From positions 1,050-65,049 of the forward strand of contig JBLHJX010000004.1 of assembly GCA_047619225.1 (NCBI GenBank): 64,000 bases of DNA, in the 5' to 3' direction. Source of the DNA: Candidatus Latescibacterota bacterium (GTDB lineage: Bacteria > Latescibacterota > UBA2968). A model generated the notes under the pieces. It saw nothing but the letters and a program-made list of their open reading frames with translations. It was not told where the DNA came from and searched no databases. Positions 4,962 through 36,288 of this stretch are shown here, piece after piece; position 1 is the first letter of the stretch, and each line of letters opens with the position of its first letter. The position numbers were made by a program, and so were the translations under genes.

Positions 4962-7408
4962 TCGAACGCTGGTTTCGAATCTTAGCAGACCTGACTTATC
5001 GACACTACAAAAGCATTATTGTGGTGTCGATTTTGTTGACGGTCTTTTGTAGCTTTTTTGTGTTCAAGTTGGTTCGCCGTTTGGAAACCGATATTGCGGC
5101 ACTGATTCCCGATAATTACCAGAGCGTCAAGACCATTGATGAAATTAAGAAACGCGTGGGTGGTGTTGGCAGTCTGGTTGTCTTGGTGCAGAGCCCCGAT
5201 TTTGAAGCCAACAAACGGTTTGCTGAAGACTTTGTGCAAGAGTTACAAAAGAAAGAATACAAACAGTATGTAAACTTTATTGATTATAAACGAGATGTCG
5301 ATTTTTTCAAAAAGAATGCCATGTTGTTTATGGACAAGGATGACTTGGACGAGATCCTTGTTCGTATTGAAGATCGTATTGCCCAAGAAAAGCTTAAGCT
5401 GTCGCCTCTTTATATTCAGCTTGATGATGGGGACGATGATGAGGAGTTAGACTTTTCGGACATCGAAGCCAAGTACCGAGGTGCCGAAGAAGGTGATGAG
5501 ACCTATTATACCAATCGGGATCGTACCATTTTGGCCGTAGAGGCGATGGCAGCTGGTACCGTGAGCAATATTGGGTTTGCCAAGGAGATGCACAACAAGC
5601 TCAAAGAGGCTGCAAATAAGCTGGTGCCGCTTTCTTATCACCCCCAAATGGTCATTGAATATGGTGGGCCATTTAAGAATAAAATTGATGAATTTGATAC
5701 CATTTTGTCTGATATCAAATCGACTTTGATTTTTGGTCTCATTGGTGTTGTCATAATTTTGACCATTTATTTCCGTCAACCTTTGGCGGCCTTTTTTGTG
5801 GCTTTGCCACTCTTGATGGGGCTTATCTGGGCGTTTGCCATTACGTATTGGGTGATTGGCAATTTAAATACGATGACGGGTTTCTTGTTTGTGATCTTGT
5901 TTGGTTTGGGAATTGATTTTGGTATTCATCTGTTTGCCCGATACCTTGAAGATCGTATGGCTAATATGGATGTGCGACTCTCGATTGAAACCATGTTGAG
6001 CCAAACGGGGCAGGCGATTTTAACCGCCGCATTGACCACTTCAATTGCCTTCTTTTCTTTGACGTTGACGGACTTTAAAGGGTTTTCAGAATTTGGCTTT
6101 ATTGTGGGCACTGGCATTATTATGTCATTGATTACCATGACGACTGTTTTGCCTGCGGTATTGGTTTTGGCAGATCGAAAGCTTAAACTGGTTCGTATGC
6201 GGCATGTTTGGGGGCACAATTGGGGAGGCAGCCGTGGGCATTTTAAGGGTGCTAAAACGGTTTTGGCGCTGGCTGCTGTTGTCACAGTCTATTTGGGTGT
6301 GAACTTGCACAAGATTGAGTTTGAGTATGACTTTACAAATTTGCGCTCAAATTTGACTGCCTCCGTTGCGGTCAAACAAAAGATGGCGACCATTTCTAAA
6401 TATGGTAATGAATCGCAGTCTTATAGCATTGTTTTGGCAGATAGCAAAGCTGAATTGGATGAAATTGTTGCGGCTTTGGAGAAAAAAATAGCAGCAGATG
6501 ACCCCACGCCTACTATTGATAAGGTAAAAACGTTGTGGTCGGAGTTGCGTGGGCAGGATGAGAAGTTGGAGATTATTGGGGAAATTCGAAAATTGGCCAA
6601 TAGCGAGTCTACCAAACTGCTTAAGGGTAAACAAAAAGCAAAACTCGACTCCTTGCGTGGTTTGCTCGACGTGTCTCGGATTGCGGTTGAAGATTTGCCT
6701 GAAAATATCTTGCGTAAATTCCGCACGATAGATGGCAGCCAAGCTTATTTTGCCCAAATCTTGCCAAGTGTTCAATTGAGAGATGGAAAAAATGCGATTG
6801 CCTTTGCCGAAGACAGCCATGTCATTCACACCGAGTCGGGCAAAATATTCTATTCGTCGAGTTCCAATATTATCTTTGCCGACATGCTACAATTGATGTT
6901 GCGCGATAGCCCGCAGGCCGTCATCTTAACGGTGATTGTGGTATTTCTCATTGTCGTCAGCGATTTTAAAAGTTTGAGATCGGCTCTCTTGGTGATGTTT
7001 CCACTTGTTTGTGGCACCATTTGGATGTGTGGAACGCTTTATTTACAAAGCGTAAAACTTAACTTTTATAATATTGTAGCTTTACCTACCATTATTGGGA
7101 TGGGGATCGATAACGGCGTACATTTGTACCATCGTTATCGAGAAGAGGGTCCGGGTTCCATGCGTTTGGTTTTAAAGAGTACGGGCGGGGCGATGTTTGT
7201 TTCTATGTTGACGACCATGGTTGGGTTTTTTGGTTTGATGACGGCACAACACCCGGGCCTGAATTCGATTGGAAGTTTGGCTTTGATTGGGTTGTTGACC
7301 TGTTTTATTGCGGCTGTTTTTGTGCTGCCAGCTTTGTTAGAAGTATTGGATGGTAACCAGGCTTCTAACGAGGACTCTAAAGATGGAACAGAGACGACAA
7401 ATGAATGA
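4958..7408 (+). CDS. MMPL/RND-family lipid transporter (HpnN-like)
   Basis: Two MMPL repeats with GLGIDFGIH and GMGIDNGVH; about 12 TM helices. Confidence 0.85.
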   Translation: MIERWFRILADLTYRHYKSIIVVSILLTVFCSFFVFKLVRRLETDIAALIPDNYQSVKTIDEIKKRVGGVGSLVVLVQSPDFEANKRFAEDFVQELQKKEYKQYVNFIDYKRDVDFFKKNAMLFMDKDDLDEILVRIEDRIAQEKLKLSPLYIQLDDGDDDEELDFSDIEAKYRGAEEGDETYYTNRDRTILAVEAMAAGTVSNIGFAKEMHNKLKEAANKLVPLSYHPQMVIEYGGPFKNKIDEFDTILSDIKSTLIFGLIGVVIILTIYFRQPLAAFFVALPLLMGLIWAFAITYWVIGNLNTMTGFLFVILFGLGIDFGIHLFARYLEDRMANMDVRLSIETMLSQTGQAILTAALTTSIAFFSLTLTDFKGFSEFGFIVGTGIIMSLITMTTVLPAVLVLADRKLKLVRMRHVWGHNWGGSRGHFKGAKTVLALAAVVTVYLGVNLHKIEFEYDFTNLRSNLTASVAVKQKMATISKYGNESQSYSIVLADSKAELDEIVAALEKKIAADDPTPTIDKVKTLWSELRGQDEKLEIIGEIRKLANSESTKLLKGKQKAKLDSLRGLLDVSRIAVEDLPENILRKFRTIDGSQAYFAQILPSVQLRDGKNAIAFAEDSHVIHTESGKIFYSSSSNIIFADMLQLMLRDSPQAVILTVIVVFLIVVSDFKSLRSALLVMFPLVCGTIWMCGTLYLQSVKLNFYNIVALPTIIGMGIDNGVHLYHRYREEGPGSMRLVLKSTGGAMFVSMLTTMVGFFGLMTAQHPGLNSIGSLALIGLLTCFIAAVFVLPALLEVLDGNQASNEDSKDGTETTNE

Positions 7409-11215: not shown

Positions 11216-12340
11216 ATGTCTGTTTTAGAACGATTGAATGTAGGCATTGTGGGTGCCGCAGGGCGAGGGGCAAGTTTTCGCACAGCATTTGAAGCGCAAG
11301 ATGTGGCAAAAATTCATGCGGTGTGCGATGTGCGGGCGGACGAATTAGAAGGTGCTGCTGAACGGCTGGGCGCTCAGGAAAAGTACACGGACTATGAAAC
11401 CATGTTGTGCCATTCTGAGTTGGATGCGGTTGTGATTGGTACGCCGATGCCTTTTCATGCGCCTCAGGCCATTGCTGCTTTGTCACAGAATATTCATGTT
11501 TTGAGTGAGGTCACTGCTGCCGTTTCTATTGAGGAATGTCAAGATCTGGTGCAGGCCGCTACCTCATCATCTGCGATTTACATGATGGCAGAAAATTACA
11601 CCTACACGAAACCCAATGTGTTGGTCAAAGAATTGGTACGCCAGGGTTTGTTTGGCGAGGTATATTATGGTGATGGGGAATATGTTCACGAACTCAAAGA
11701 GTTGAATGAGATTACCAAATGGCGTCGGAAGTGGCAGACGGGCATTGATGGGGTCACTTATTGCACGCACAGTTTAGGGCCCATCTTGCAGTGGATGCCA
11801 CAAGATCGGGTTGTACGCGTCTGTTGTGAGGGCAGTGGGCATCACTACGAAGACCCACGGGGCGATAAGTATGAGAATCAAGATTCGTGTGTGATGTTGT
11901 GCAAGATGGCCAGCGGTGGACTTGTGAAAATTAGGGTTGATATGTTGTCAGAACGACCGCATTCGATGACAAATTATCAGCTTCAGGGCACCAAAGGGTG
12001 TTATGAGTCTGCACGCAGTCGGGGAGAGACGCATCGCATTTGGTTAGCGGATCTTTGTGAAGATCGAAATACATGGATGGATTTGATGGATTTGGAAGCC
12101 GACTATATGCCTGACCTATGGCGCAACCCGCCTGAAGCAGCGTTAAATGCTGGGCATGGTGGGGGTGACTTTTTTGAAGTTTTGGATTTTGTGAAAAGTG
12201 TTACGGGCGAGCAGGCTTGTCCTATTGGTATTCATGAAGCTATGGATATGACATTGCCTGGGCTTGTGAGCCAACAATCGGTTTTACAAAATGGGAACTG
12301 GTTGGACGTTCCCGATTCTCGAAGTTGGATTAAGGGTTGA
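11216..12340 (+). CDS. Gfo/Idh/MocA-family oxidoreductase
   Basis: VGAAGRG, SEV, MMAENY, YCTHSLGP, GHGGGD. Confidence 0.85.
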   Translation: MSVLERLNVGIVGAAGRGASFRTAFEAQDVAKIHAVCDVRADELEGAAERLGAQEKYTDYETMLCHSELDAVVIGTPMPFHAPQAIAALSQNIHVLSEVTAAVSIEECQDLVQAATSSSAIYMMAENYTYTKPNVLVKELVRQGLFGEVYYGDGEYVHELKELNEITKWRRKWQTGIDGVTYCTHSLGPILQWMPQDRVVRVCCEGSGHHYEDPRGDKYENQDSCVMLCKMASGGLVKIRVDMLSERPHSMTNYQLQGTKGCYESARSRGETHRIWLADLCEDRNTWMDLMDLEADYMPDLWRNPPEAALNAGHGGGDFFEVLDFVKSVTGEQACPIGIHEAMDMTLPGLVSQQSVLQNGNWLDVPDSRSWIKG

Positions 12341-25914: not shown

Positions 25915-26271
25915 GTGAAAATTCTACTGGCAGACGATGAAAAAGATATTTTGCTTATCTACTCAGAAATGTTGGCTGGCAATGGGCATAAAGTCTCGGC
26001 TGTTAGCAACGGTGCAGAAGTCATCCGGCTTTTAGCGGATACCGATTTTGATATGTTGATTCTCGATTTGTTTATGCCCGAGATGGATGGTTTTGAAGCC
26101 ATTCAAACGTTGCGTGATAAGGGGTATACTGTTCCCGTGATTGTGATGACGGGGCATTTTCCTGATGATGAAGTGGCAGGACGCTTAGATGGGTTGGGCG
26201 TTTTTACGACCTTGCGGAAACCTGTGATGATTTCGACGTTGTTGAATGCCGTGAATGAGGCCACGAAGTAA
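25915..26271 (+). CDS. Single-domain response regulator
   Basis: ADDE, LDLFMPEMDG, MTG, KP. Confidence 0.9.
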   Translation: MKILLADDEKDILLIYSEMLAGNGHKVSAVSNGAEVIRLLADTDFDMLILDLFMPEMDGFEAIQTLRDKGYTVPVIVMTGHFPDDEVAGRLDGLGVFTTLRKPVMISTLLNAVNEATK

Positions 26272-26315
26272 GCGCGTGTAAAGGGCGTTGATTTTTCCCT
26301 TATAAAGAACCTATT

Positions 26316-26353
26316 AAAAAAGCCCCAGTGTTTTAACACACTGGGGCTTTTTT
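26316..26353. terminator. Bidirectional terminator
   Basis: AAAAAAGCCCCAGTG / CACTGGGGCTTTTTT. Confidence 0.85.
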
Positions 26354-26377
26354 ATATCAAGTAGTCGCTATGCTTTA

Positions 26378-27043
26378 TCATCTCTGGTCAAATTTGTAAC
26401 CCACACCGCGCACGGTAGCGATTGCATTGCCAATATCGCCCAATTTTGAGCGCAAGCGGCGAATGTGTACATCAACGGTTCGCATGCCGCCATAATAGTC
26501 GTATCCCCAAATGCTGTCAAGGAGATCGGATCGGGTAAACACACGTCCTTGATGGCTAACAAGATGTTTGATGAGTTCGTATTCTTTAAGCGTAAGTTCG
26601 ATAAGGGCGCCTTTGACACGCACTTCATACCGAATGGTATTGATGGTTAGTTCTTCGATTTTGATGGTGTGTTCGTCGATGGGGCGGTCGTCGTTCCACA
26701 ACGAAAGGCGCAAACGTGCTTCAAGCTCGCGCAGACTATATGGGGTAATGATGAAATCGTTAATGCCCAAAGAAAAGTCGAGATTTAGGGCGGTCATTTC
26801 GTCAGTGATAACCAAAAGGGGCAGATCTTGGTGCTGGACTCGGTTTAAAATTTGGGCAAGGCGTTCGGGAGAGGTGTCGGGGACAACGATGAGAAGCTCT
26901 ACCGTATCGACAGGTATGAGCGTTGTATTGGTTGCCAAATGATCACGCAGAGGTACATGGTCTACTTGATGGCCAATATATCCCAAATCGGATTTTAAAC
27001 GTGCGCCGTGTGCTTCGTCGGCCAACAAAAGAATTTGTGCCAT
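26378..27043 (-). CDS. OmpR-family regulator with atypical receiver (GlnR-like)
   Basis: Winged-helix LTLKEYEL...RTVDVHIRRLRSKL...TVRGVGY; receiver lacks the canonical Asp and Lys. Confidence 0.8.
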   Translation of the reverse strand: MAQILLLADEAHGARLKSDLGYIGHQVDHVPLRDHLATNTTLIPVDTVELLIVVPDTSPERLAQILNRVQHQDLPLLVITDEMTALNLDFSLGINDFIITPYSLRELEARLRLSLWNDDRPIDEHTIKIEELTINTIRYEVRVKGALIELTLKEYELIKHLVSHQGRVFTRSDLLDSIWGYDYYGGMRTVDVHIRRLRSKLGDIGNAIATVRGVGYKFDQR

Positions 27044-27324
27044 AATACGCCAAAGGTTAGATACATTGTTGGTGAGGGATGAAGATATAACTTTTACGAA
27101 ACAATGTGGTGTTCGTCCTGCGTTTTCAACAGGTTGAAAAATAGAGACCTAAGAATACTTTGTCAAGGTGTATCTGGTATCGAATACAGGTGAAAGGTTT
27201 GGGTTATGTACATAAAAAAAACCGGAAATGAGTTACTCTGCTCTTTCCCAGCCACGGTAATGATATAACAAAAAAGGGTTGTTTTGTCAAGTTTGTAAAC
27301 TATTTATTAACAATAATTTATGTA

Positions 27325-27353
27325 TTGACTTAGGATTTGTAAATGATTAAATT
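27325..27353 (+). promoter_or_regulatory. Putative sigma70 promoter for the 27414 operon
   Basis: TTGACT-N17-TAAATT in an AT-rich divergent region. Confidence 0.45.
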
Positions 27354-27413
27354 TACTTTGTTCTGTCTCCAGAATTTTCTGGAGGGATCGGCGACTCTTT
27401 TAGGAGGGCCTGT

Positions 27414-28379
27414 ATGAACCAGCAGCCTTTCGGGGGTGAGGGGGAAGTCACTTGTTCTGTTTGTGAGATAGTCATTTCGATGGCACGTCTTCAAGTCATT
27501 CCTGACGCGAAATTATGCGTGCCGTGTCAGGAAAAAGTTGAAAGGGGATTGCTCGACCTTAACGCACACTTGTTTGATAGCTCCGGGATTCAAGCAGAAC
27601 CTGAACCACAACCATTGGAGGTACAAGAAGACCGTTTGGTGGTAGGGGCTTGGTCGAGTGGGTTTATGGAAGTGGCGGAACAGAGTGGGCAAATGCGGGC
27701 CTTGCTGCGCGAAGGAAAGCGGGAAGAAGCCCAAGCCTTGGTGCAGGCATTGCCGATTGAAGCACAAGCCGCACTGGTTGTTGTGGATGAAGATCCGGAA
27801 GAAGCCCTTTCCATTACGGGTATGGATGGGAAAGGCAATCCGGGGTATCACACACAAGTGGTGAGTCTGTTGCCTACAGAGTTGCTAACAGGTTTGATTG
27901 CTTATGATGGGGAGGAAAAGCGATTTAATACCCGATTAATTCAGGCGATGACGCCTGGTGCATTTAGCCGAACCGTGGCTGAAACCCTTGACCCAGTGGA
28001 CAATGCCGAGGCGCGTGCGGCAGTAACCTGGGAATGGTTGGAGGCTTTGGCGGAGCTTCGGGATGCCAATAAACGCGCAGAATTGTTGCGCAGTGTGGAA
28101 CCTGAGTTGTTGGAAGAAGCACTGACCACACGCATCCATCATTTCAATTTGAACAAGACCATAACGTCCGTTGAAATCGATGGTGTGAACTGGGGCGTAG
28201 ATATGTTTCGTGTCTTTTCTGAAGACAGTGCTGTGGGTCCCTTGCCGAGCAAATTTATTGAAGATGAGAAGGTCGGTGAAGTTATGGATTCACTTTATGA
28301 GGCAGCTCCAGATGTGATGAGCGCAATGGTGCGTGGTGCCTGGGAACGGCAGTTTGATGGATGGGAGGATTTAGAATGA
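27414..28379 (+). CDS. Protein with N-terminal DksA/TraR C4 zinc finger and unknown acidic domain
   Basis: CSVCEIVISMARLQVIPDAKLCVPCQEK; AGGAGG RBS. Confidence 0.75.
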   Translation: MNQQPFGGEGEVTCSVCEIVISMARLQVIPDAKLCVPCQEKVERGLLDLNAHLFDSSGIQAEPEPQPLEVQEDRLVVGAWSSGFMEVAEQSGQMRALLREGKREEAQALVQALPIEAQAALVVVDEDPEEALSITGMDGKGNPGYHTQVVSLLPTELLTGLIAYDGEEKRFNTRLIQAMTPGAFSRTVAETLDPVDNAEARAAVTWEWLEALAELRDANKRAELLRSVEPELLEEALTTRIHHFNLNKTITSVEIDGVNWGVDMFRVFSEDSAVGPLPSKFIEDEKVGEVMDSLYEAAPDVMSAMVRGAWERQFDGWEDLE

Positions 28380-29359
28380 ATCCACTCGCGAGATTAGATC
28401 TGAGCCGTTTTCAGATTGATGACGAAAGTTTTGTGGGGCAGGCCATTGCATTGGGGGTGCGTTTTAATAAGCTTCCGCCTCAAACAACGGATGCCTTGTT
28501 GGGTTTTTTGCGTGCCAAGGGTTTGTATTATGGCCAGCGCAACAGATCGGGTATTGCAATTGCCCGTTCTGGGTTGGAGCGTGGGGTCCGTCAGGCCCTG
28601 ATTTGTTTGGATATGGGATTGTGGAATTTGTCTCAAGGCGATCTCAATCGGGCCGTTGAATGCTTGGGTAAAGGCGATTTTGAAGCGACCCGAAAGGAAG
28701 GGTATCAAATTGCCTTTTTTCAACTGGAGGAAATTCGAAAAGGAAGTTTGGGGTTGTTGACACGGCCTACTGCCGCCTTTTTGCAAGAGGAACATCGCAA
28801 CTTGAAGCGTTGGGCAACATTGGTTCCTGAAACTTGGACACGACTGCCTGATGATTTGGAGGAAGAAGCGCAGTTGGTGGATGCCCGCATTGATTACGGG
28901 ATATTCTTGCAAACCCAAGCTCGAATGGATTTTCTGAATTCCATTCCAAATGAAGCCCTTGAGCAGTTGCAGCAGATGGTTTCAGAAGGGCGGTCTTTTG
29001 AGGGCTTGCTGCGCAACTTGATATTGGCTTTGGCTTTGGATTTGGAGACGTTGATACCGTCGTCAGAAGAAATGTCTCAGTTTGAGTCGACGTGTTTTAA
29101 GGACGGTATTATGCGTTCTGAGATTCGAGAAAAAGTTTTGCATTTAATGGATCGCCAGCTTGAAGCAAGTGTTTTGGATGGGCCTTATCGATCTGAGATT
29201 CGAGTTGTTGTAGAAGAGGAAATTGCATTCTTTGAACAGGTCTCAGGTGAAGATTTGGCTGGTTTCTTTTTGTTGGCAGGCAAGAAAGCTGCCACGGCGG
29301 ATGATTTGCTGGATGATGTGGTTGCGGATGATTTGTTGGACGAAGTGATTATGGAATAG
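28376..29359 (+). CDS. Hypothetical helical protein, translationally coupled to the upstream gene
   Basis: Start abuts or overlaps the upstream stop (start position uncertain); acidic tail with duplicated ADDLLD. Confidence 0.65.
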   Translation: MNPLARLDLSRFQIDDESFVGQAIALGVRFNKLPPQTTDALLGFLRAKGLYYGQRNRSGIAIARSGLERGVRQALICLDMGLWNLSQGDLNRAVECLGKGDFEATRKEGYQIAFFQLEEIRKGSLGLLTRPTAAFLQEEHRNLKRWATLVPETWTRLPDDLEEEAQLVDARIDYGIFLQTQARMDFLNSIPNEALEQLQQMVSEGRSFEGLLRNLILALALDLETLIPSSEEMSQFESTCFKDGIMRSEIREKVLHLMDRQLEASVLDGPYRSEIRVVVEEEIAFFEQVSGEDLAGFFLLAGKKAATADDLLDDVVADDLLDEVIME

Positions 29360-29471
29360 GTGCAGGAAGAAGAAATGTGAAAGATGAAAGATGAAAGGAT
29401 GAGAAGGCCACTTGTTGAACCGGTTATTTGGGTTCTTGGATAGGTGGTAGGGTAAAATTTCTTTGGTTGAT

Positions 29472-29507
29472 GAGGGGCGTGCTCGTGAGGGTGCGCCCCT
29501 CTTTTTT
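29472..29507 (+). terminator. Intrinsic terminator
   Basis: GAGGGGCGTGC / GTGCGCCCCTC followed by a T run. Confidence 0.7.
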
Positions 29508-29597
29508 GTAATAGAAAAAAAGTTTGAAACTTGCTTGGTACATTGATGGACGAATAAGAGCGCACTTTGGATAAATGCGCTCTTTTTATTTTTTATG

Positions 29598-29625
29598 TGA
29601 ACCGAGAGAATAGGTGTGGTGTCAT
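29598..29625 (+). promoter_or_regulatory. Putative ECF-type autoregulatory promoter
   Basis: TGAACC-N17-GTCAT ending 17 nt before the sigma ATG. Confidence 0.45.
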
Positions 29626-29642
29626 TGTAGCAGGGGATATCT

Positions 29643-30230
29643 ATGAATCTGTCGGATGCCGAGTTGATACAACGTATTATGAAGCGCGATTCTGAAGCAT
29701 TTGCGGTGTTATTTGATCGGTATATTGGCCAGGTTACCGATCATTTGACGCGGATGCTTCGGGATGCTGGGGCTGCCGATGATGTCGCGCAGGAAGTGTT
29801 TTTGCGTGTGTGGAATCGGGCAGACCAGTGGTCTGGTGCAGGTGCGTTTCAGGGATGGTTGTTTCGGATCGCGACGAATTTGGCGTTGAATCACTTGCGA
29901 GGAAAAAAGCGCAGGCGTGAACAGCCACTGGAAATGCCATCGATGTATGATGAAGATGAGGATGAAAACTTGGTTCCGGGTTGGATGATCGATCATGTGT
30001 CTTTGGGGCCCGATGCACACGTAGAGCAGTCTGAGCAACGGCAAATGTTGGGGCGGATGATTGCAGATTTGCCAGAGGAAAAACGGGAAGTGTTTGAGAT
30101 GGTTCACGATGAGGAATTGGGGCTTGGGGAAGTGGCCAAGCGCTTGGGCATTCCTGAAGGCACGGTGAAGTCGCGGTTGTTTCATGCACGGAAGAAGTTG
30201 GCAGATGAATGGAAACGGGTAGATAAGTAA
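29643..30230 (+). CDS. ECF RNA polymerase sigma factor
   Basis: Region 2 ADDVAQEVFLRVW...WLFRIATN; region 4 EVAKRLGIPEGTVKSRLFHARKKL. Confidence 0.92.
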   Translation: MNLSDAELIQRIMKRDSEAFAVLFDRYIGQVTDHLTRMLRDAGAADDVAQEVFLRVWNRADQWSGAGAFQGWLFRIATNLALNHLRGKKRRREQPLEMPSMYDEDEDENLVPGWMIDHVSLGPDAHVEQSEQRQMLGRMIADLPEEKREVFEMVHDEELGLGEVAKRLGIPEGTVKSRLFHARKKLADEWKRVDK

Positions 30231-30307
30231 AAAGTAAAAAGTGAAAGGCACCTACACTCGGCCTTTTCCGGTAAGGATTAGGTTTTATCACAACTTTTGA
30301 GATTGTT

Positions 30308-30490
30308 TGCCTTCGGCACGACTTACTTTTGTTCAACAGCAAACAAAAGTAAGCAAAAAATGCCGTCCCTCAGGTGCCGGGAAGACTGATTTTCCGCAAA
30401 TATCCTCAGTGAATGCACTGGATTATATAGCCTACGAACGCCTAGGTTTTTATGAATTGTGTTGCACCACGGAATCTGCGCGGAAAATCG
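30308..30490 (+). repeat. REP/REPIN-like structured intergenic element
   Basis: TGCCTTCGGC...CTTACTTTTGTT / AACAAAAGTAAG hairpin related to 36238-36288; GATTTTCCGC / GCGGAAAATC inverted repeat. Confidence 0.55.
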
Positions 30491-30583
30491 GTGATTGCTT
30501 AAGCTGATGGGTTTGATGTTATCGGATGAAGCTATTTTGTTTAGATAAGTTTAAGTGGGAAGACTTTTATAGGAGGTTATTTC

Positions 30584-33500
30584 ATGGCGATTGATGCGCG
30601 GGCACCTTGGCATAAGATTTCTTGGGATGGGTTTTTGCGGGAAGGGTTACCAAATTTGTTGGCAGATGCTGTGTCTTTGGAGGGGTATCGTGTTGAGGCG
30701 GTTGATACCTATCGTTGTCGGTTGTATTTATCTGTTAAGGGAAGTCTGGGCGTGATTGATGTGGTTTATGATGATATACCACAATGTGATGCATTGGGTC
30801 GGTTTCGTATTGATGGGCATACGCGGGTTGTTGTGGCAAGACCCACAGAGGTGGATTTGGAGAAGGCCGATATTTTGTGTGTGGGAGAACAAATATTGGC
30901 AGTTTTGGCTTCGCAGATTGGAGATGTGCCCGAAGGTTTGGATGGTGTGGATGCTGTTTTGGCGTGTTTACCCGTGTCTGAGTGGATACATGACTTTTTT
31001 CTGACGGAGCCCACGTCTCAATATTTACAGATGACAAATGCTGTGGATATGCATACCCATTTGCGACGCATTACGCTTTTCATGCTCTTGGGGGAAGCCG
31101 TTGATGACAGATATGTGGTGCACCCTTCGCAAGAAGGGCGTGTGGATTTGTTTTCGACACCTGAAGGGCCAAATATTGCGCGCATTTTTGAAGTGGCATT
31201 GGGCGCGACTATTCGGGGTGGTAAGTTGATTATTGTGGACAATTCGCCTGCGATGCGGTTGGGGTCAAATGCGTCTACGGTTCCATTTTTGGAACACAAC
31301 GATACCAATCGGTCGCTTATGGGGATGAACATGGTACGGCAATGGGTAGGTGTGCCGAACCCTGAGTGGCCACGTGATGAAGCGGGTGCTTGGCGCGATT
31401 ATTTTTCGCGATATGATGGGATGGAACCTGAGACGGAACCTGCATTGGTACAAACGGGTTGCGAAGAGGACAATCCTTATTTTTGGAAAGGGTATAACCT
31501 GCTGACGGCATTTATGGCGTGGGATGGCGATACGTATGAAGATGGGATTGTGATTGGTGAATCGGCGTCGAAGAAAATGATGCAGCCGCAACAGGTGGCT
31601 GTGGGTGATAAAGTGAGCAATCGGCACGGTAATAAAGGTGTGGTCACCCGTATTTTACCCGATGATGCAATGCCACAGCTGCCTGACGGTACCTCTGTGG
31701 AATTGATTGTGAGTGTGTGCGCTTTGCCTTCTCGTTTGAACATCGGACAATTGAGAGAAGCTGTGTTGGGGCGTGTGGCTAAGACGGAGGGCAAACCTGT
31801 GATTGTGCCGCCTTTGGGAGCGCCATCAATTGATGAGATACAAACGCGTTTAAAGGCCAATGGTTTGCCCGAAGATGGGATGGAACAGCTTACCTTAAAA
31901 GGGAAAGCTTTACCCCGACGGACAACTGTGGGGTGGGTTTATTGGGGTCGTTTGAGCCATAGGGTGTGTGATAAGATTCACTTTGGTGTGCGCCCAGACG
32001 AGCGACCACAACGATTGGGTGAGATGGAGTTTCTAGCTTTGCAAGAATCAGGCGCTGTGGCATTGATCAATGAATTTTTCAATACGTGTTCTACGATACA
32101 TCCAGACGCGGACTCATTGGCCGACCGTGTGGCAAAGGGACCGGTATCACCTGCAGGTGCACCTTCTGCGGGTTATCTTGCATTGGTCAATCGATTGGGA
32201 CATGATGGGGTTGTTGCTTCGCTTGGGGATGAGGGTGTGGCTTTTAAGGCAAAACGATCTGGTGATCTCAAGTTGGCACGTGCGGTAGCTCACCCCTGGT
32301 TGTCCTCGGGGATGTTGTCACATGTTGGGGTGGCGGACTCGGCTGAAGGAGAGGCTGTGCAAGAAGCCAATGTCCGATTGGAGCAGATGATTGCAAATGG
32401 TGCGCCCCAAGTGTTGGTTGAACGGGCAACAGATACGTTGTCTGAGCGGGTGCAGGAATTTTACGCCGCATTGATTACACGGGAACATCTGCGGTTTGAG
32501 TCTCGTGTGTTGTTCAGTGGTCGCTCGGTTATGACGCCGAATAAGCATTTTAAACATGATCAGATTGGTGTACCTGAAGAAATGGCTTGGGCGTTGTTTG
32601 GGCCGTTTGCCGCTCGGGAATTGGGCAGCGACATTGAAGTTAAAAAACGGTCAAAAAAAGCAGCACAAGTTTTGGATGGGTTGATGGCCAGAATGTGGGT
32701 TGTTGGGACGCGTGCACCGGCCCTGTCTCCTACTTCTCTTATGGCATTCCACCCCGTGCGTGTCGCTGGTGATGCGATTCAAGTTCCTATCTTGTGCTCC
32801 AAGTTAATGGATGGTGACTTTGATGGGGATCAATTGGCCTTGATTCTGCCTGTGACAGAAGAAGGTCAAAAATCTGCGCAAGATCATTTGTCTATTGTTG
32901 CACATTTGACACGTGACCCCAGTTTGATCGGGCGAGAAAAAGTGCATCCGATGCACGACGCGATGTTTGGGTTGGCGCATTTGAGTATGACGGACGCGGG
33001 GCTAAAAGAGTTGGAGAAAGTTGCGGGAGAATCCCTCACACGCAGGGGCAAGTTCTTGGATAAAAAGCATTTTATTGCCTTTCTGGAACGGGTGCGGGCA
33101 AATCATGGTGCCGAAGCGGCACTGGACCTTTCTGAACGTTTGCAAAGGAAAGGGTTTGAGGCGGCGCAACAAACGGGTGCTTCGATGGGGGCGTTTTTGG
33201 GCGGAAGCCTGGATCTGCCAGAACCACCTGAGGGAGACGGGGTTGATGAATGGCGGTCTTACGTGGATGAAATGGCCGCGGAAGTGAGCCAGTTTAATCA
33301 CTTTGAAGATGATGAATTTGGGGTGATTGCGATGTTGGCCGAATGTGGTGCGCGTGGGAATTGGGAACAGTTGCGGCAGTATGTGGCACCCCATGGGTTG
33401 GTATACAATGCTGCACGAGAGCTGACGCCTATTCGTCATGGATGGCGAGACGGATTGCCAGTCGATGAACTTTTGACCCGAACCGTTGGCGCGCGCATGG

Positions 33501-33700
33501 GCTTGGCCAGTGCTTTGGCAGAAATGATTGAAGTGAGTCGTGATGTGGCAAAACAAAGTGCTCCGAGCGGGTATGGCGTTTTGTCACGGGCGCGGCGTTC
33601 GGATAACCCGGGTGTTGTGTTTGCACGTGCGGCCATGAAAGGGGAAGTTGATTTGTTGGCCGATGCATACAGTCGGTTGTTTGTGGGGATTGTGGATTAG
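30584..33700 (+). CDS. Miniaturised single-chain RNA polymerase beta / beta-prime fusion protein
   Basis: Beta motifs in order (TPEGPNI, PFLEHNDTNRSLMG, YED, GDKVSNRHGNKG, PSRLNIGQ, QRLGEME), then beta-prime motifs in order (SGRSV, RAPAL, DGDFDGDQ, GARG, GARMGLA); AGGAGG RBS. Confidence 0.9.
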   Translation: MAIDARAPWHKISWDGFLREGLPNLLADAVSLEGYRVEAVDTYRCRLYLSVKGSLGVIDVVYDDIPQCDALGRFRIDGHTRVVVARPTEVDLEKADILCVGEQILAVLASQIGDVPEGLDGVDAVLACLPVSEWIHDFFLTEPTSQYLQMTNAVDMHTHLRRITLFMLLGEAVDDRYVVHPSQEGRVDLFSTPEGPNIARIFEVALGATIRGGKLIIVDNSPAMRLGSNASTVPFLEHNDTNRSLMGMNMVRQWVGVPNPEWPRDEAGAWRDYFSRYDGMEPETEPALVQTGCEEDNPYFWKGYNLLTAFMAWDGDTYEDGIVIGESASKKMMQPQQVAVGDKVSNRHGNKGVVTRILPDDAMPQLPDGTSVELIVSVCALPSRLNIGQLREAVLGRVAKTEGKPVIVPPLGAPSIDEIQTRLKANGLPEDGMEQLTLKGKALPRRTTVGWVYWGRLSHRVCDKIHFGVRPDERPQRLGEMEFLALQESGAVALINEFFNTCSTIHPDADSLADRVAKGPVSPAGAPSAGYLALVNRLGHDGVVASLGDEGVAFKAKRSGDLKLARAVAHPWLSSGMLSHVGVADSAEGEAVQEANVRLEQMIANGAPQVLVERATDTLSERVQEFYAALITREHLRFESRVLFSGRSVMTPNKHFKHDQIGVPEEMAWALFGPFAARELGSDIEVKKRSKKAAQVLDGLMARMWVVGTRAPALSPTSLMAFHPVRVAGDAIQVPILCSKLMDGDFDGDQLALILPVTEEGQKSAQDHLSIVAHLTRDPSLIGREKVHPMHDAMFGLAHLSMTDAGLKELEKVAGESLTRRGKFLDKKHFIAFLERVRANHGAEAALDLSERLQRKGFEAAQQTGASMGAFLGGSLDLPEPPEGDGVDEWRSYVDEMAAEVSQFNHFEDDEFGVIAMLAECGARGNWEQLRQYVAPHGLVYNAARELTPIRHGWRDGLPVDELLTRTVGARMGLASALAEMIEVSRDVAKQSAPSGYGVLSRARRSDNPGVVFARAAMKGEVDLLADAYSRLFVGIVD

Positions 33701-33706
33701 AGGCAA

Positions 33707-33747
33707 TCCCCTGTGGTCCCCTTTAAAAAGGGGACGGTTTATGGGGT
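33707..33747. repeat. REP-like hairpin / terminator after the RNAP-like gene
   Basis: GTCCCCTTT / AAAGGGGAC core with flanking CCCC / GGGG. Confidence 0.5.
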
Positions 33748-33879
33748 GACTGAGGGGCAATTGAGTGGTTGTTTGACGGGTTACTGGATTGTTCTGTCCG
33801 AGGGAAGAATTGCGGGGAATTAGTGTGTTATAGGAAGTGCCACTTAGGATTTGTTATGGTGGGCATTTCTTATGATATG

Positions 33880-34005
33880 GGGTTTGCCATTTATTTGCTT
33901 GTGTTGGACGGTGTGTTGATTCTGGTAATTGCGTTGGAAACTGTGAGTTATCAAGCGATTACGGCTGCTACTGCACATCCGGTAGATGCGCTTAGAAGTG
34001 AGTGA
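33880..34005 (+). pseudogene. MacB/FtsX-type ABC permease C-terminal remnant
   Basis: LILVIALETVSYQAITAATAHPVDALRSE resembles the typical TVSYQAIKAAxANPVxALRxE terminus; 5-prime boundary approximate. Confidence 0.6.
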
Positions 34006-34121
34006 GTGTTCAAATTGGAATTCGAAACGAAGGAAAAATACCGTACGAATGAAACAATTCTGTGCGTGTGTCGAACCAATCAGTGTTTGTTTCTCAATCA
34101 GAATTTTTATAGGAGGATCAA

Positions 34122-34967
34122 GTGGGCAAAGATGATTTGGGTTCGGTATTTTGTTGTCCAGTGTCTAAGGGCACGCTTGTATTGGAAGATGGCACACTCT
34201 GTTGTAAGACCTCGGAGCGACGTTATGCAATTCATGAAGGCATTCCCGATTTTTTTATTGAGGAGGACGAGGCGCATAGTATTTTTCCAGAAGATCTGAA
34301 TCGAAAGTGGTTGCTTGAGGATGTTGCTGTTGGACGGGACATTGTTTATGGTGAGTATACGCGTCGGTTGAAGGGGATGCAGTTTGTGATGGATATGTTG
34401 GGGAAGTGGTCTCATCCAGGCTTTCGGATTTTAGAAGTGGGGTGTGGGACAGGGCACTTTACCAAGTGGATGACCGAGGTGTGTGATTCGGATTCAGAGA
34501 TTTTTGCGTTTGATTTTTCGCAATATATGTTGGCATCTACTCAGTTAAAAATTGGGCAACCTTCTAATGTGAAATTGTTTAAGGCAAATGCGCGTGGGCC
34601 GATGCCGTTTCCCGAAGGGCATTTTGATTTCATTCTTCAGCGTTTGGCACCTTTTGGACCGCGTGCGTTTGGGTCTGAGAATTGGGCGATGAAATATCTC
34701 AAGCCGGGTGGGCATTACATCTTTGCGGGATGGGATCATGAATTTATCGATTTTGAGCGATTGGCTACTGCCGGATATGTGGATACGGAATTGCACCGAT
34801 GGAAATATAAAGATGTGCAATCGATAGAAGAATACATTGGCGGGTTGATGGAGGGTGGTGGGCATACTCGGGAAGAAGCTGAGAAAAAGGCGAAGTCGGT
34901 TTATTCTCAACCGGATGAGGTGCGGGTTCGGAAGGAGCACGTGATCGTGGGTAAAAAAGAGGGTTGA
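34122..34967 (+). CDS. Class I SAM methyltransferase with Trm112-like N-terminus
   Basis: CCPVSKGTL...YAIHEGIPDF; LEVGCGTG; AGGAGG RBS. Confidence 0.8.
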   Translation: MGKDDLGSVFCCPVSKGTLVLEDGTLCCKTSERRYAIHEGIPDFFIEEDEAHSIFPEDLNRKWLLEDVAVGRDIVYGEYTRRLKGMQFVMDMLGKWSHPGFRILEVGCGTGHFTKWMTEVCDSDSEIFAFDFSQYMLASTQLKIGQPSNVKLFKANARGPMPFPEGHFDFILQRLAPFGPRAFGSENWAMKYLKPGGHYIFAGWDHEFIDFERLATAGYVDTELHRWKYKDVQSIEEYIGGLMEGGGHTREEAEKKAKSVYSQPDEVRVRKEHVIVGKKEG

Positions 34968-35244
34968 AAGGAACGCTGATTTCTGGTTTTGAAGATGAAT
35001 TGGACGAATCTTGTTCGCAACGCAATGATGAGTGACTTTGGGACTTTGGGATTGATATATTCGAATTTGTTTGACGAGATATCGGTTTCGTAACCGTGGA
35101 GAAATTTGGTAGATTTAAAGGCGTGTCTGTGCATTTTGCGGGCAGGTCTTTTCTGTAAAACAAAAAAAGAGAAATACCTTACAAACAGTACAGAGACTCT
35201 CAATGGCGCGAAATGTAAGGTTGGGCTTTCACGAAAGGGTAGAA

Positions 35245-35768
35245 ATGGAGCGGTTGTTTCATGTGAGCGATCAGGCTGAGATCAAGCGGTTTGAACCCAG
35301 GGTGTCACCTTCGGAGAATCCTTTTGCGGGAGATGACAAAGTGGTTTGGGCGATTGGAGAGCGTTTGTTGCACAACTATTTGTTTCCGCGTGATTGTCCA
35401 CGGGTGACCTTTTACGCGGGGCACAGACTACAGAATCCGACGTCGCGCGTTTTTGGCAGGTAAGCACGGCAAAATATATCGTGGCAATTGAGTCGTCTTG
35501 GGTACCTCAAATGTTGGCTGAGAGGTTGTACTGTTACGAGTTTGCAAGTGAGACATTTGAGAAGGCTGGGGAGGTCGCACGGTATTACCTTTCTCGTGAA
35601 GCTGTCGAGCCAATTGCGGTAACTGTTTACAGTGATTTGTTCTTGGAATTGGCTCGGCGAGGCGTTGAAGTTCGTATTCTTCCGTCTCTTTGGCCACTGC
35701 GAGATGCCGTGGTAGATTCAAGCGTGCATTTTTCCATTATTCGAATGCGAAACGCACAGCCGAGATAG
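35245..35768 (+). pseudogene. Frameshifted conserved hypothetical gene (DUF6886-like)
   Basis: LFHVSD...FEPR...VWAI...NYLFPRDCPRVTFYAG continues in the -1 frame as AQTTESD...FSIIRMRNA; shift at G4 run 35418-35421. Confidence 0.65.
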
Positions 35769-35956
35769 ATTTTGGGAGTCTACAGGGTTTGGTTTTCTGC
35801 GGATTACTTCAATATTTTCGGTGTGATCCCATTCGCTATTTAGGTTCTAAGTGAATTTTTTTCAATATATGTTCTCAGGAAACATTTTTAATAAAATTAT
35901 TAAATATATTAAAAAAAGATACTTATATAATAATATTATTATATGAACCTGTGTTT

Positions 35957-36288
35957 ACACTTTCTTTAAAAGTGTGCTGTCTCGCCAAAAGATCGGGTCC
36001 GTGAATGTGCAGGATCACGAAGGGCCCGAAAATACCGCGAAAAACACGAAGCCCTTCCCCAAAACCCAACTTCGCCCACCGGTGGCAGGGGCCGTTGTGC
36101 AGTTGGTGGTGTGTGAGGTGTGGGTGAGGGGCGTGTGGAACACGAGGTGGTGTGTGGGAACTGCGCGGGCTGGTGAGGGTGGTTTGCGCTCGTAAAAACA
36201 CCAAAGCCCATAAAAGCCCTGCGGCATTTGAGCAGAGACTTTTTTGCCTACTTTTTGTGTCTCTTAAAAAGTAGGTCGCCGAAGGCAT
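35957..36288. repeat. Non-coding structured element with a REP-like end
   Basis: Terminal CCTACTTTTT / AAAAAGTAGG...GCCGAAGGCA related to 30308; internal direct repeats AAAAACACGAAGCCC and AAAAACACCAAAGCCC. Confidence 0.45.

Follow-up and report, generated by a model that had tools for sequence, protein, structure and literature searches.

A single-chain mini RNA polymerase gene and an adjacent sigma factor gene as a candidate transcription module in Candidatus Latescibacterota

The DNA analyzed is a stretch of 64,000 nucleotides (nt) from Candidatus Latescibacterota bacterium (assembly GCA_047619225.1, contig JBLHJX010000004.1, forward-strand positions 1,050 to 65,049), which is called the window here and numbered from its first letter. 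The assembly is a metagenome bin of 445 contigs that is 89% complete, with 5.6% contamination. Near its middle the window carries a gene for a mini RNA polymerase, P0001, in which the core of a bacterial beta subunit is fused to the core of a beta-prime subunit in one chain of 1038 amino acids (aa). Cellular transcription as a whole is generally taken to depend on a single core of five subunits and about 400 kDa, and the small single-chain relatives known so far are those of phages and plasmids. A first-pass annotation made from the letters alone had described P0001 as a lone paralogue of the RNA polymerase (RNAP) core. With the gene for an extracytoplasmic function (ECF) sigma factor directly upstream and a promoter in front of both, that picture becomes one of a two-gene module, which consists of the following features.

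29598 to 29623, forward strand: ECF-type promoter TGAACC-N14-GGTGTC, beginning 45 nt ahead of the sigma start codon
29643 to 30230, forward strand: gene for ECF sigma factor P0272, 195 aa, directly upstream of the mini polymerase gene (matches to Sigma70_r2, Sigma70_r4_2, and TIGR02937)
30572 to 30577, forward strand: ribosome-binding site AGGAGG, 6 nt before the mini polymerase ATG
30584 to 33700, forward strand: gene for mini polymerase P0001, beta core fused to beta-prime core in one chain (open reading frame; Pfam, NCBIfam, and PDB matches; structure model; family profile)

Domains kept and lost in the mini polymerase

The open reading frame (ORF) of the mini polymerase starts with ATG and runs without interruption behind a strong ribosome-binding site, as the first-pass annotation had stated. 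Profile hidden Markov models agree with that annotation in finding both cores within the 1038 aa and in the order RpoB then RpoC: Pfam RNA_pol_Rpb2_6 matches residues 332 to 467 (E 3e-38) and RNA_pol_Rpb1_2 matches residues 692 to 766 (E 3e-13), with weak, sub-threshold matches to Rpb2_3, Rpb2_7, and Rpb1_4. In a sequence search of the PDB, bacterial beta chains are matched by the N-terminal half (E as low as 1e-44) and beta-prime chains by the C-terminal half (E as low as 4e-26). The top NCBIfam models are those of full-length beta/beta-prime fusions (NF007172 and NF011417, E 6e-55 and 5e-51), but the fusion-model score of 186 bits fails a cut-off of 5372, and the canonical models for RpoB (TIGR02013, 168 bits versus 801) and RpoC (TIGR02386, 112 bits versus 963) are failed as well. 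Curated NCBIfam, Pfam, PHROG, and PADLOC contain no model for a family of its own, and the named database homologues are labeled "hypothetical protein" or given Pfam-domain names by their source.

The catalytic residues proposed earlier by eye were all recovered when the chain was mapped with phmmer onto E. coli K-12 rpoB and rpoC. In the beta half, R678 corresponds to R243, E813/D814 to E319/D320, K1065 to K343, K1073 to K351, R1106 to R384, and H1237 to H459; in the beta-prime half, R425 corresponds to R710, D460/462/464 to D745/747/749, and R731 to R924. The metal triad falls inside the DGDFDGDQ block that had been placed at 32810 to 32833. R641 is the equivalent of beta-prime R346 of switch 2, in an SGRSV block, and the funnel residue R924 lies in a GARG block. 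The chain contains the metal triad, the two lysines with the E/D pair, and the switch 2 and funnel motifs of a two-barrel catalytic core. Among 46 full-length family members aligned to one another and to E. coli beta and beta-prime, 43 have the DFDGD triad and the catalytic motifs intact, and GDK..NRHG.KG, (Y/F)ED, HLRR, and SGR(A/S)V are conserved across the family. Along the gene, the parts of the enzyme are arranged as follows.

30584 to 30958, forward strand: N-terminal beta-sheet domain, residues 1 to 125; conservation of at least 90% in 14 columns; beta 119-147 matched weakly
30959 to 32218, forward strand: beta-derived part, residues 126 to 545, with fork, R243 block, YED block, beta barrel, and the beta C terminus to residue 1342
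32219 to 32341, forward strand: junction, residues 546 to 586, with a conserved HPW motif and a weak match to beta-prime 77-126
32342 to 32473, forward strand: clamp helices (coiled coil), residues 587 to 630, aligned by the family profile to beta-prime 267-309
32816 to 32830, forward strand: catalytic DFDGD triad D745, D747, D749, aligned by phmmer to beta-prime D460/462/464
33458 to 33568, forward strand: long helix, residues 960 to 991, from GARMGLA; equivalent to the start of the bridge helix (beta-prime 776-792)

Of the RpoB blocks first described, GRFRIDG..RVVV in the N-terminal domain is less clear than had been stated, its match to beta 119-147 being weak (domain E 0.005). The beta-derived part holds the fork (beta 474-579), the NRxLMGxNMxRQ block (beta 650-707, with R243), the YED block (E319/D320), and a beta barrel that carries K343, K351, R384, and H459. 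The junction segment has no cysteine, so the zinc site is lost. The clamp helices, which had also been recognized by eye, form two long antiparallel helices in the structure model (residues 587 to 604 and 609 to 630); in normal RNAP, sigma region 2 docks on them. The helix of residues 960 to 991 is followed by only about 45 more residues, and the profile could be aligned to beta-prime only up to residue 792, indicating that there is no trigger loop. The end of the chain had been read as region H; its last 43 residues do land on beta-prime 1331-1354, but 187 of 300 shuffled sequences reach the same score.

According to the 46-member profile, the stretches of beta that were kept are 474-579, 650-707, 790-821, 1054-1147, and 1177-1342 (the very C terminus), and those of beta-prime are 267-515 (holding the clamp helices, switch 2, and the triad-bearing barrel, gapped at the position of the rudder), 589-640, and 710-792 (the funnel and the beginning of the bridge helix). 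The same map was obtained from a Pfam comparison with a 2522-aa full-length fusion. Retained overall are both catalytic barrels together with fork, switch 2, funnel, bridge helix, and clamp helices. Lost are the beta lobes (Rpb2_1/2) and external domain, the N-terminal zinc and clamp part of beta-prime, and everything after the bridge helix, including the trigger loop, except the roughly 45 C-terminal residues, which are highly conserved; about 5 residues stand in place of the flap (beta 822-1053). Nothing in the chain corresponds to the lobes, flap, zinc domain, rudder, trigger loop, or jaw, and it lacks about 60% of the parental beta/beta-prime length. Judged from these alignments, the polymerase descends from bacterial beta and beta-prime that were fused in that order and pruned, which agrees with the earlier description of a selectively pruned paralogue.

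AlphaFold2 run on the family alignment gave a single compact model with a mean predicted local distance difference test score of 93.1 and a predicted template modeling score of 0.91. The best Foldseek neighbors in the PDB are bacterial and plastid beta and beta-prime chains (E down to 5e-25), so the structural check suggested along with the first reading came out in its favor; the template modeling (TM) scores by query of 0.3 to 0.44 are expected, as each target covers half of the query. In a viral structure library, the Foldseek matches were to giant-virus polymerase subunits. Another viral structure, BFVD entry A0A8S5SD80_1, annotated as a "minor tail protein" of an uncultured siphovirus, aligns over 1150 columns with a TM score by query of 0.40 and 8% identity. 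A two-barrel polymerase fused to a tail protein, as has been reported for phage P23-45, is one possible identity for this entry.

The part of beta that forms the rifamycin pocket in E. coli was also kept (window 31019 to 31186, residues 146 to 201). Q513, H526, R529, P564, and I572 are identical, and D516 is replaced by Q, S531 by T, and L533 by F; positions of this kind are associated with rifamycin resistance.

Distribution, selection, and linkage to a sigma factor gene

Intact homologues of the same length that share the deletions are numerous, as the existence of a real family would predict. A word-indexed protein search, in which 8000 candidates were scored, gave 1134 matches; 117 of the best 120 are 969 to 1068 aa long, with 42 to 84% identity, on contigs of up to 8 Mb. 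An exhaustive search of 50%-identity representatives gave 427 matches at E ≤1e-30, and the best 150 comprise 65 proteins of 940 to 1110 aa, 80 shorter pieces, and 5 long canonical-type fusions. Across the phylum, 65 of 168 genomes carry a homologue (E ≤1e-80), including 19 of 52 high-quality genomes, and the carriers belong to 16 of 49 genera; in one genus the gene is found in 21 of 21 genomes. The names attached to homologues are Gemmatimonadota, Latescibacteria, Armatimonadetes, Candidatus Latescibacterota, and Chloroflexota (few records). The ratio of nonsynonymous to synonymous substitution rates (dN/dS, by the Nei-Gojobori method for all pairs with dS 0.2 to 0.8) is 0.12 to 0.20 over the whole length, which indicates that the mini polymerase is under purifying selection. 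Contigs from three other sequencing runs tile the ORF and the beta/beta-prime junction with 0 to 3 differences, and the same architecture was found in single-contig (closed) chromosomes; together these rule out a chimera, one of the concerns that had been raised about the ORF.

The mini polymerase is a second polymerase beside the normal RNAP. A canonical rpoB lies elsewhere in the same assembly (contig C194, 1321 bits versus a cut-off of 801), where it is cut by the contig end. A canonical rpoC was not found in this 445-contig, 89%-complete assembly, most simply because of the contig break at the end of rpoB; in five of five near-complete relatives with the mini gene, a full-length rpoC above the curated cut-off is present elsewhere on the chromosome. 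The expected canonical rpoB-rpoC pair is therefore borne out for rpoB in the genome itself and for rpoC in its relatives, but not for its own rpoC. A recent duplication of the host rpoB was considered and rejected: in the shared blocks that gene is 37 to 41% identical to the mini polymerase, no closer than those of other bacteria, which points to an old, diverged paralogue. One 8.4-Mb genome, G003, carries two paralogous mini polymerases (loci L030 and L031) that are 48% and 41% identical to the window protein.

The gene is chromosomal, and its neighbors in the window are housekeeping genes. No tRNA, phage, integrase, or ribosomal-protein gene flanks it, which for phage and ribosomal-protein genes agrees with the earlier account, and no tRNA gene was found in the 64 kb. 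No family member was found in IMG/VR contigs; at least 80% of the mini polymerase was covered by none of the 50,697 phage and 72,556 plasmid records; and the PADLOC and defense-system libraries gave no match. The only PHROG matches were to beta and beta-prime families of canonical length.

One 5225-nt contig of run X6, which is about 94% identical to the window, joins window position 29899 straight to 32057. This 2157-nt deletion removes the sigma factor's C-terminal portion and the first 491 polymerase codons, out of frame. The contig may represent a deletion allele in a related population, and, being a single contig, it may also be an assembly artifact.

Other fused beta/beta-prime proteins were seen in metagenomes (P0249, P0252, P0259, P0263, and P0266, representatives of 1948 to 2522 aa), and Atlas clusters of 1164 to 1787 aa carry Rpb2_6 together with Rpb1_2. 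The 1948-aa P0259 seems, by eye, to start with an alpha-subunit-like N-terminal domain. The variety of shortened or fused polymerases may be greater.

The gene directly upstream encodes a sigma factor with sigma-2 and sigma-4 domains only (Sigma70_r2, E 4e-17; Sigma70_r4_2, E 1e-15). P0272 scores 109 bits against TIGR02937 (cut-off 42.9), and none of the specific ECF equivalog models reaches its cut-off. Linkers between the two domains of ECF sigma factors are usually variable; here the acidic linker contains a conserved PGWMID..LGPD motif in which W114 is near-invariant and D117 invariant. Linkage of the two genes was assessed in three sets of loci: 18 from relatives and one named genome, 10 from distant metagenomes (9 with upstream sequence), and 14 spread across the phylum. 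An adjacent upstream sigma gene on the same strand is present in 18 of 18, 7 of 9, and 14 of 14 of these, or 39 of 41 assessable loci, although many of the genomes behind them are close kin and the loci are not independent. The polymerases at the sigma-linked loci are 34 to 76% identical to the window protein. The distance from the sigma stop to the polymerase start is mostly 4 to 17 nt, or the genes overlap; in the window it is 353 nt. Each of the two paralogues in G003 is directly preceded by its own ECF sigma gene, and the distance matrices of sigma factors and polymerases are correlated with a Mantel r of 0.986, a value reached by 0 of 999 permutations.

A few loci have additional, identically oriented genes between those for sigma and polymerase. 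These are a gene for a 391-aa protein without a Pfam match at L023 (6722 to 7894) and L033, where the inserts are 94% identical, and a gene for a 606-aa ABC transporter at L027 (11118 to 12935). A metagenome locus, L044, has two further sigma-like genes around the pair (389 to 2065 and 5914 to 6960), one of which encodes sigma-2, sigma-4, and a weak, sub-threshold C-terminal receiver match in a PhyR-like arrangement, which may point to an added level of control by partner switching at that locus.

The motif TGAACC-N14-GGTGTC was found within the 160 nt before the sigma gene in 32 of 36 regions, and in 29 it starts 43 to 50 nt before the start codon. Among the misses, L044 has a one-letter variant, seen by eye, and L031 has a strict copy about 250 nt upstream. 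At the two loci without an adjacent sigma gene, the same motif stands directly before the polymerase gene. We take the -35-like GAAC, the -10-like GTC, and their spacing to be those of an ordinary ECF promoter, which suggests autoregulation. In the genome of the window, the strict motif has 2 matches at N14 versus 1 to 2 at each of four neighboring spacings; with one mismatch it has 17 versus 13 to 25 at other spacings. In three of five complete relatives the operon's own promoter is the sole strict match, and a reversed-pattern control gives 1 match per genome. No enrichment indicating a wider regulon was therefore detected against other spacings or the reversed pattern in this genome and the five complete relatives, relaxed or half-site motifs lying outside the scan. 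Because the motif is nearly unique in each genome, the detectable output of the sigma factor is the operon itself, that is, the mini polymerase.

Possible modes of action and known relatives

The conservation of the catalytic residues and of the gene pair suggests that the locus very probably encodes an active polymerase in a sigma-controlled module. We cautiously favor a two-gene accessory module that would form a sigma-coupled single-chain RNAP, with the promoter driving the ECF sigma factor and, with it, the polymerase. The module would be laid out as TGAACC-N14-GGTGTC, the ECF sigma gene, and the 1038-aa polymerase gene, followed in several relatives by a terminator. In complex with the host core, sigma would fire its own promoter, so that sigma and mini polymerase would be made together; the canonical promoter geometry and an isolating terminator upstream suggest that the first transcripts come from the host core plus sigma. 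Sigma region 2 would then dock on the retained clamp helices, and the pair, of about 135 kDa, would start RNA chains at sigma-specified sites. Docking is favored by the clamp helices being one of very few noncatalytic elements kept, by the translational coupling of sigma and polymerase, as is often the case for subunit genes, and by the PGWMID..LGPD linker motif, the conservation of which suggests a specific contact. Elongation in the absence of the flap, lid and rudder, and trigger loop would then proceed with little pausing, hairpin termination, or proofreading: without the flap, pausing and hairpin termination are both expected to be weak; without the lid and rudder, RNA and DNA would separate less well and the elongation complex would be less stable; and without the trigger loop, no proofreading and lower fidelity are expected. 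The roles of these elements are discussed in the available text on the phage-type polymerase YonO (PMC5467207).

Taken separately, the idea that the sigma factor is the mini polymerase's own initiation factor is quite possibly right. A tentative extension is that the 1038-aa core and its private ECF sigma would constitute a complete, promoter-specific holoenzyme of about 135 kDa, a second and orthogonal one beside the normal enzyme in free-living bacteria of several phyla. Such a holoenzyme would function without alpha, omega, flap, or trigger loop, and it would respond neither to hairpin terminators nor to factors acting through the missing modules.

Several findings weigh against this interpretation. 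In normal holoenzymes, the flap tip helix anchors sigma region 4; the flap is absent from the mini polymerase, including this tip, and a canonical -35/-10 geometry on the mini enzyme would need another anchor. The conservation of the clamp helices is average for the protein (mean top-residue frequency 0.44, with 2 columns at 90% or more), and the best-conserved segments are the catalytic ones. No natural fusion of sigma and polymerase was found: the genes are in different frames in 14 of 14 phylum-wide loci, and none of the best 150 of the 427 representatives has a length of 1111 to 1947 aa. Open frames of 1194 to 1244 aa were considered as such fusions and rejected as upstream read-through. 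Since no further copies of the motif were detected, a holoenzyme directed by this motif would be limited to its own operon as a target. Lastly, 3 of the 46 aligned members (P0125, P0137, and P0190) have degenerate metal motifs (DFDGN, GFSAQ, and GFGGL), and P0137 and P0190 additionally lack the second catalytic lysine. These may be inactive paralogues, and they imply that a noncatalytic role can suffice in some lineages.

The chief alternative, which we consider rather unlikely, is that the sigma factor is a switch that works only with the host core and that the mini polymerase acts without it. Its activity could then consist, for instance, in copying single-stranded, nicked, or RNA templates, in extending primers, or in reading through long stretches of DNA. 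The ordinary ECF geometry of the promoter, the deletion of the sigma-4-anchoring flap, and the lack of other promoter copies in the genome would all fit such a switch, and the loss of the lid, rudder, and exit-channel parts would suit unusual templates. Gene order can also be read in this way: at two loci the sigma gene is not adjacent, yet its promoter precedes the polymerase gene, and other genes may intervene (the ABC transporter gene at L027 and the gene for the 391-aa protein at L023 and L033). Without being decisive, the retention of the clamp helices when almost all other peripheral modules were stripped, the tight translational coupling at most loci, and the conserved sigma linker argue instead for contact between the two proteins.

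An arrangement in which a gene sits directly downstream of, and coupled to, an ECF sigma gene is also the usual one for an anti-sigma factor, and no other anti-sigma candidate is conserved beside the pair. The mini polymerase could then be a noncatalytic decoy or anti-sigma-like sink whose clamp helices buffer sigma, or which titrates other RNAP ligands, and the three members with lost catalytic residues fit this. It is nevertheless quite improbable, given that 43 of 46 members preserve the catalytic residues in both barrels as well as in the fork, switch 2, and funnel, that dN/dS is low over the whole length, and that conservation peaks in the catalytic segments rather than the clamp helices. 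An origin in a mobile element such as a phage or plasmid, of which the gene would be a leftover comparable to YonO or the yeast plasmid protein Orf6, could account for the patchy spread (65 of 168 genomes, 16 of 49 genera), the 2157-nt deletion across sigma and polymerase in one related contig, and the genome with two copies. This origin appears highly improbable when set against the empty IMG/VR, phage, and plasmid searches, the lack of a PADLOC match, PHROG matches confined to canonical-length beta/beta-prime, clade-variable housekeeping flanks without integrase or tRNA, and the presence of the gene in every genome of one genus. As for an assembly chimera or a decaying pseudogene, the fragmented and partly contaminated bin would leave room for either, but the closed chromosomes, the contigs from other runs that span the junction, the purifying selection, and the confident fold make both scarcely conceivable.

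YonO, from the SPbeta prophage of Bacillus subtilis, is one of the closest known systems. Both it and the mini polymerase are single chains of about 100 kDa that contain both barrels and lack the trigger loop, flap, and lobes. In the available text, YonO is described as a single chain of about 100 kDa that transcribes efficiently without trigger-loop homology, is prophage-borne, and has no homology to multisubunit polymerases beyond a few active-site residues (PMC5467207). In contrast, and comparing the two by description, the mini polymerase is similar in sequence to bacterial beta (E 1e-44) and beta-prime (E 4e-26), retains bacterial versions of the fork, switch 2, clamp helices, funnel, and bridge helix, and is chromosomal and linked to an ECF sigma gene. 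A tblastn search of phage sequences gave 192 matches at E up to 10, and no SPbeta-like record is among the 45 listed. The second comparison is Orf6 of the yeast linear killer plasmid pGKl2, an Rpb2::Rpb1 fusion of 982 aa that, as far as the accessible portion of its description goes, has the same order of halves and a similar size, with about half of each parent deleted in both proteins (PMC2919709). The same portion places Orf6 on a cytoplasmic plasmid and presumes an origin from yeast Rpb1 and Rpb2 or their paralogues (PMC2919709). Compared by description, the mini polymerase differs in being bacterial in type, chromosomal, and sigma-linked. From its sequence, the family would work like YonO and Orf6 while belonging to neither.

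Full-length beta/beta-prime fusions (NF007172 and NF011417, of about 2840 to 2890 positions) likewise join beta and then beta-prime in one chain, but they are the sole and complete polymerase of their cells, whereas the mini polymerase is about 60% shorter and coexists with a normal one. The nonvirion RNAPs of jumbo phages (phiKZ and AR9/PBS1) are, from partial sources, also reduced beta/beta-prime relatives without alpha or omega; they differ in consisting of several unfused subunits, in being phage-encoded, and, as described, in not using ECF sigmas (PMC7824862). The mini polymerase has weak tblastn similarity to them, e.g., to that of PBS1 at E 2e-6. In a typical ECF operon, the sigma gene is followed by that of an anti-sigma factor. 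Autoregulated operons of this kind resemble the present one in having sigma first, a coupled partner downstream, and a GAAC...GTC-type promoter; here, however, the partner is a polymerase homologue rather than a membrane or zinc anti-sigma factor, and no further regulon was detected. In the literature searched, which left subscription journals mostly outside, neither the family, in agreement with the initial impression, nor any pairing of an ECF sigma with a polymerase-like gene was found described; such a pairing could be mentioned in the genomic-context tables that belong to the ECF classification (PMC7826278). Within that scope, the single-chain two-barrel lineage, its genomic setting, and its regulatory partner appear to be new.

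A widespread chromosomal family with clear beta/beta-prime sequence that has shed about 60% of it amounts to a natural deletion experiment, and the retained parts indicate what selection keeps for catalysis and possibly for the use of sigma. If the sigma factor is the initiation factor, the pair would be the smallest known sigma-dependent polymerase and a tractable model for promoter opening, as well as a ready-made orthogonal transcription pair with a near-unique promoter for synthetic biology. If it is not, the question becomes what use a cell has for a second polymerase that would be blind to terminators and free of proofreading, with a private sigma factor as its only known regulator.

Neighboring genes and minor features

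The remaining features around the module are as follows.

27414 to 28379, forward strand: zf321 (P0270), encoding an acidic, soluble protein of 321 aa with an N-terminal DksA/TraR-type C4 zinc finger (Pfam, locus comparison)
28361 to 29359, forward strand: unk332 (P0271), 332 aa, always with zf321 (locus comparison)
29472 to 29501, forward strand: intrinsic terminator with a 13-bp stem and a T-run, which closes the zf321/unk332 unit and isolates the sigma/mini-RNAP unit
30305 to 30435, no strand assigned: dispersed repeat of about 100 to 130 nt between the sigma and polymerase genes (blastn, metagenome depth)

zf321 is a clade-specific upstream companion, present at 10 of the 18 loci from relatives and 0 of the 14 phylum-wide loci. 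unk332 has no match in Pfam or NCBIfam, and its Atlas scores of 0.80 or less are at the noise level. Clustering of flanking ORFs at 43 loci placed zf321 and unk332 together at 11, including the window, and revealed no general conserved partner besides sigma. The downstream genes vary by clade, with a BlaI/BlaR1-like pair confined to one genus clade, and in several relatives a hairpin terminator directly follows the polymerase gene.

Insertion of the dispersed repeat accounts for the 353-nt gap between sigma and polymerase genes in the window. It has 47 more blastn matches in the same genome and is inserted at this locus in this genome only. Read depth at 30306 to 30456 is 60 to 428x in four metagenome runs, with many loose ends, and the repeat looks like a miniature mobile or repetitive extragenic palindromic (REP)-like element. 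Rfam gave only sub-threshold matches in 26000 to 36000, at a hairpin near 26300.

Farther downstream, a DUF6886 gene (35203 to 35768) appears to be split over two frames, as ORFs 35203 to 35463 and 35394 to 35768, and its Pfam match begins at profile position 52. At L020, a locus of the same genus, the corresponding tblastn pieces (11420 to 11608 and 11600 to 11947) share one frame, suggesting a frameshift or sequencing error in the window. Across the window (1 to 64000), GC skew is positive in all 2-kb segments (0.04 to 0.31), and most of the large listed ORFs are on the forward strand.

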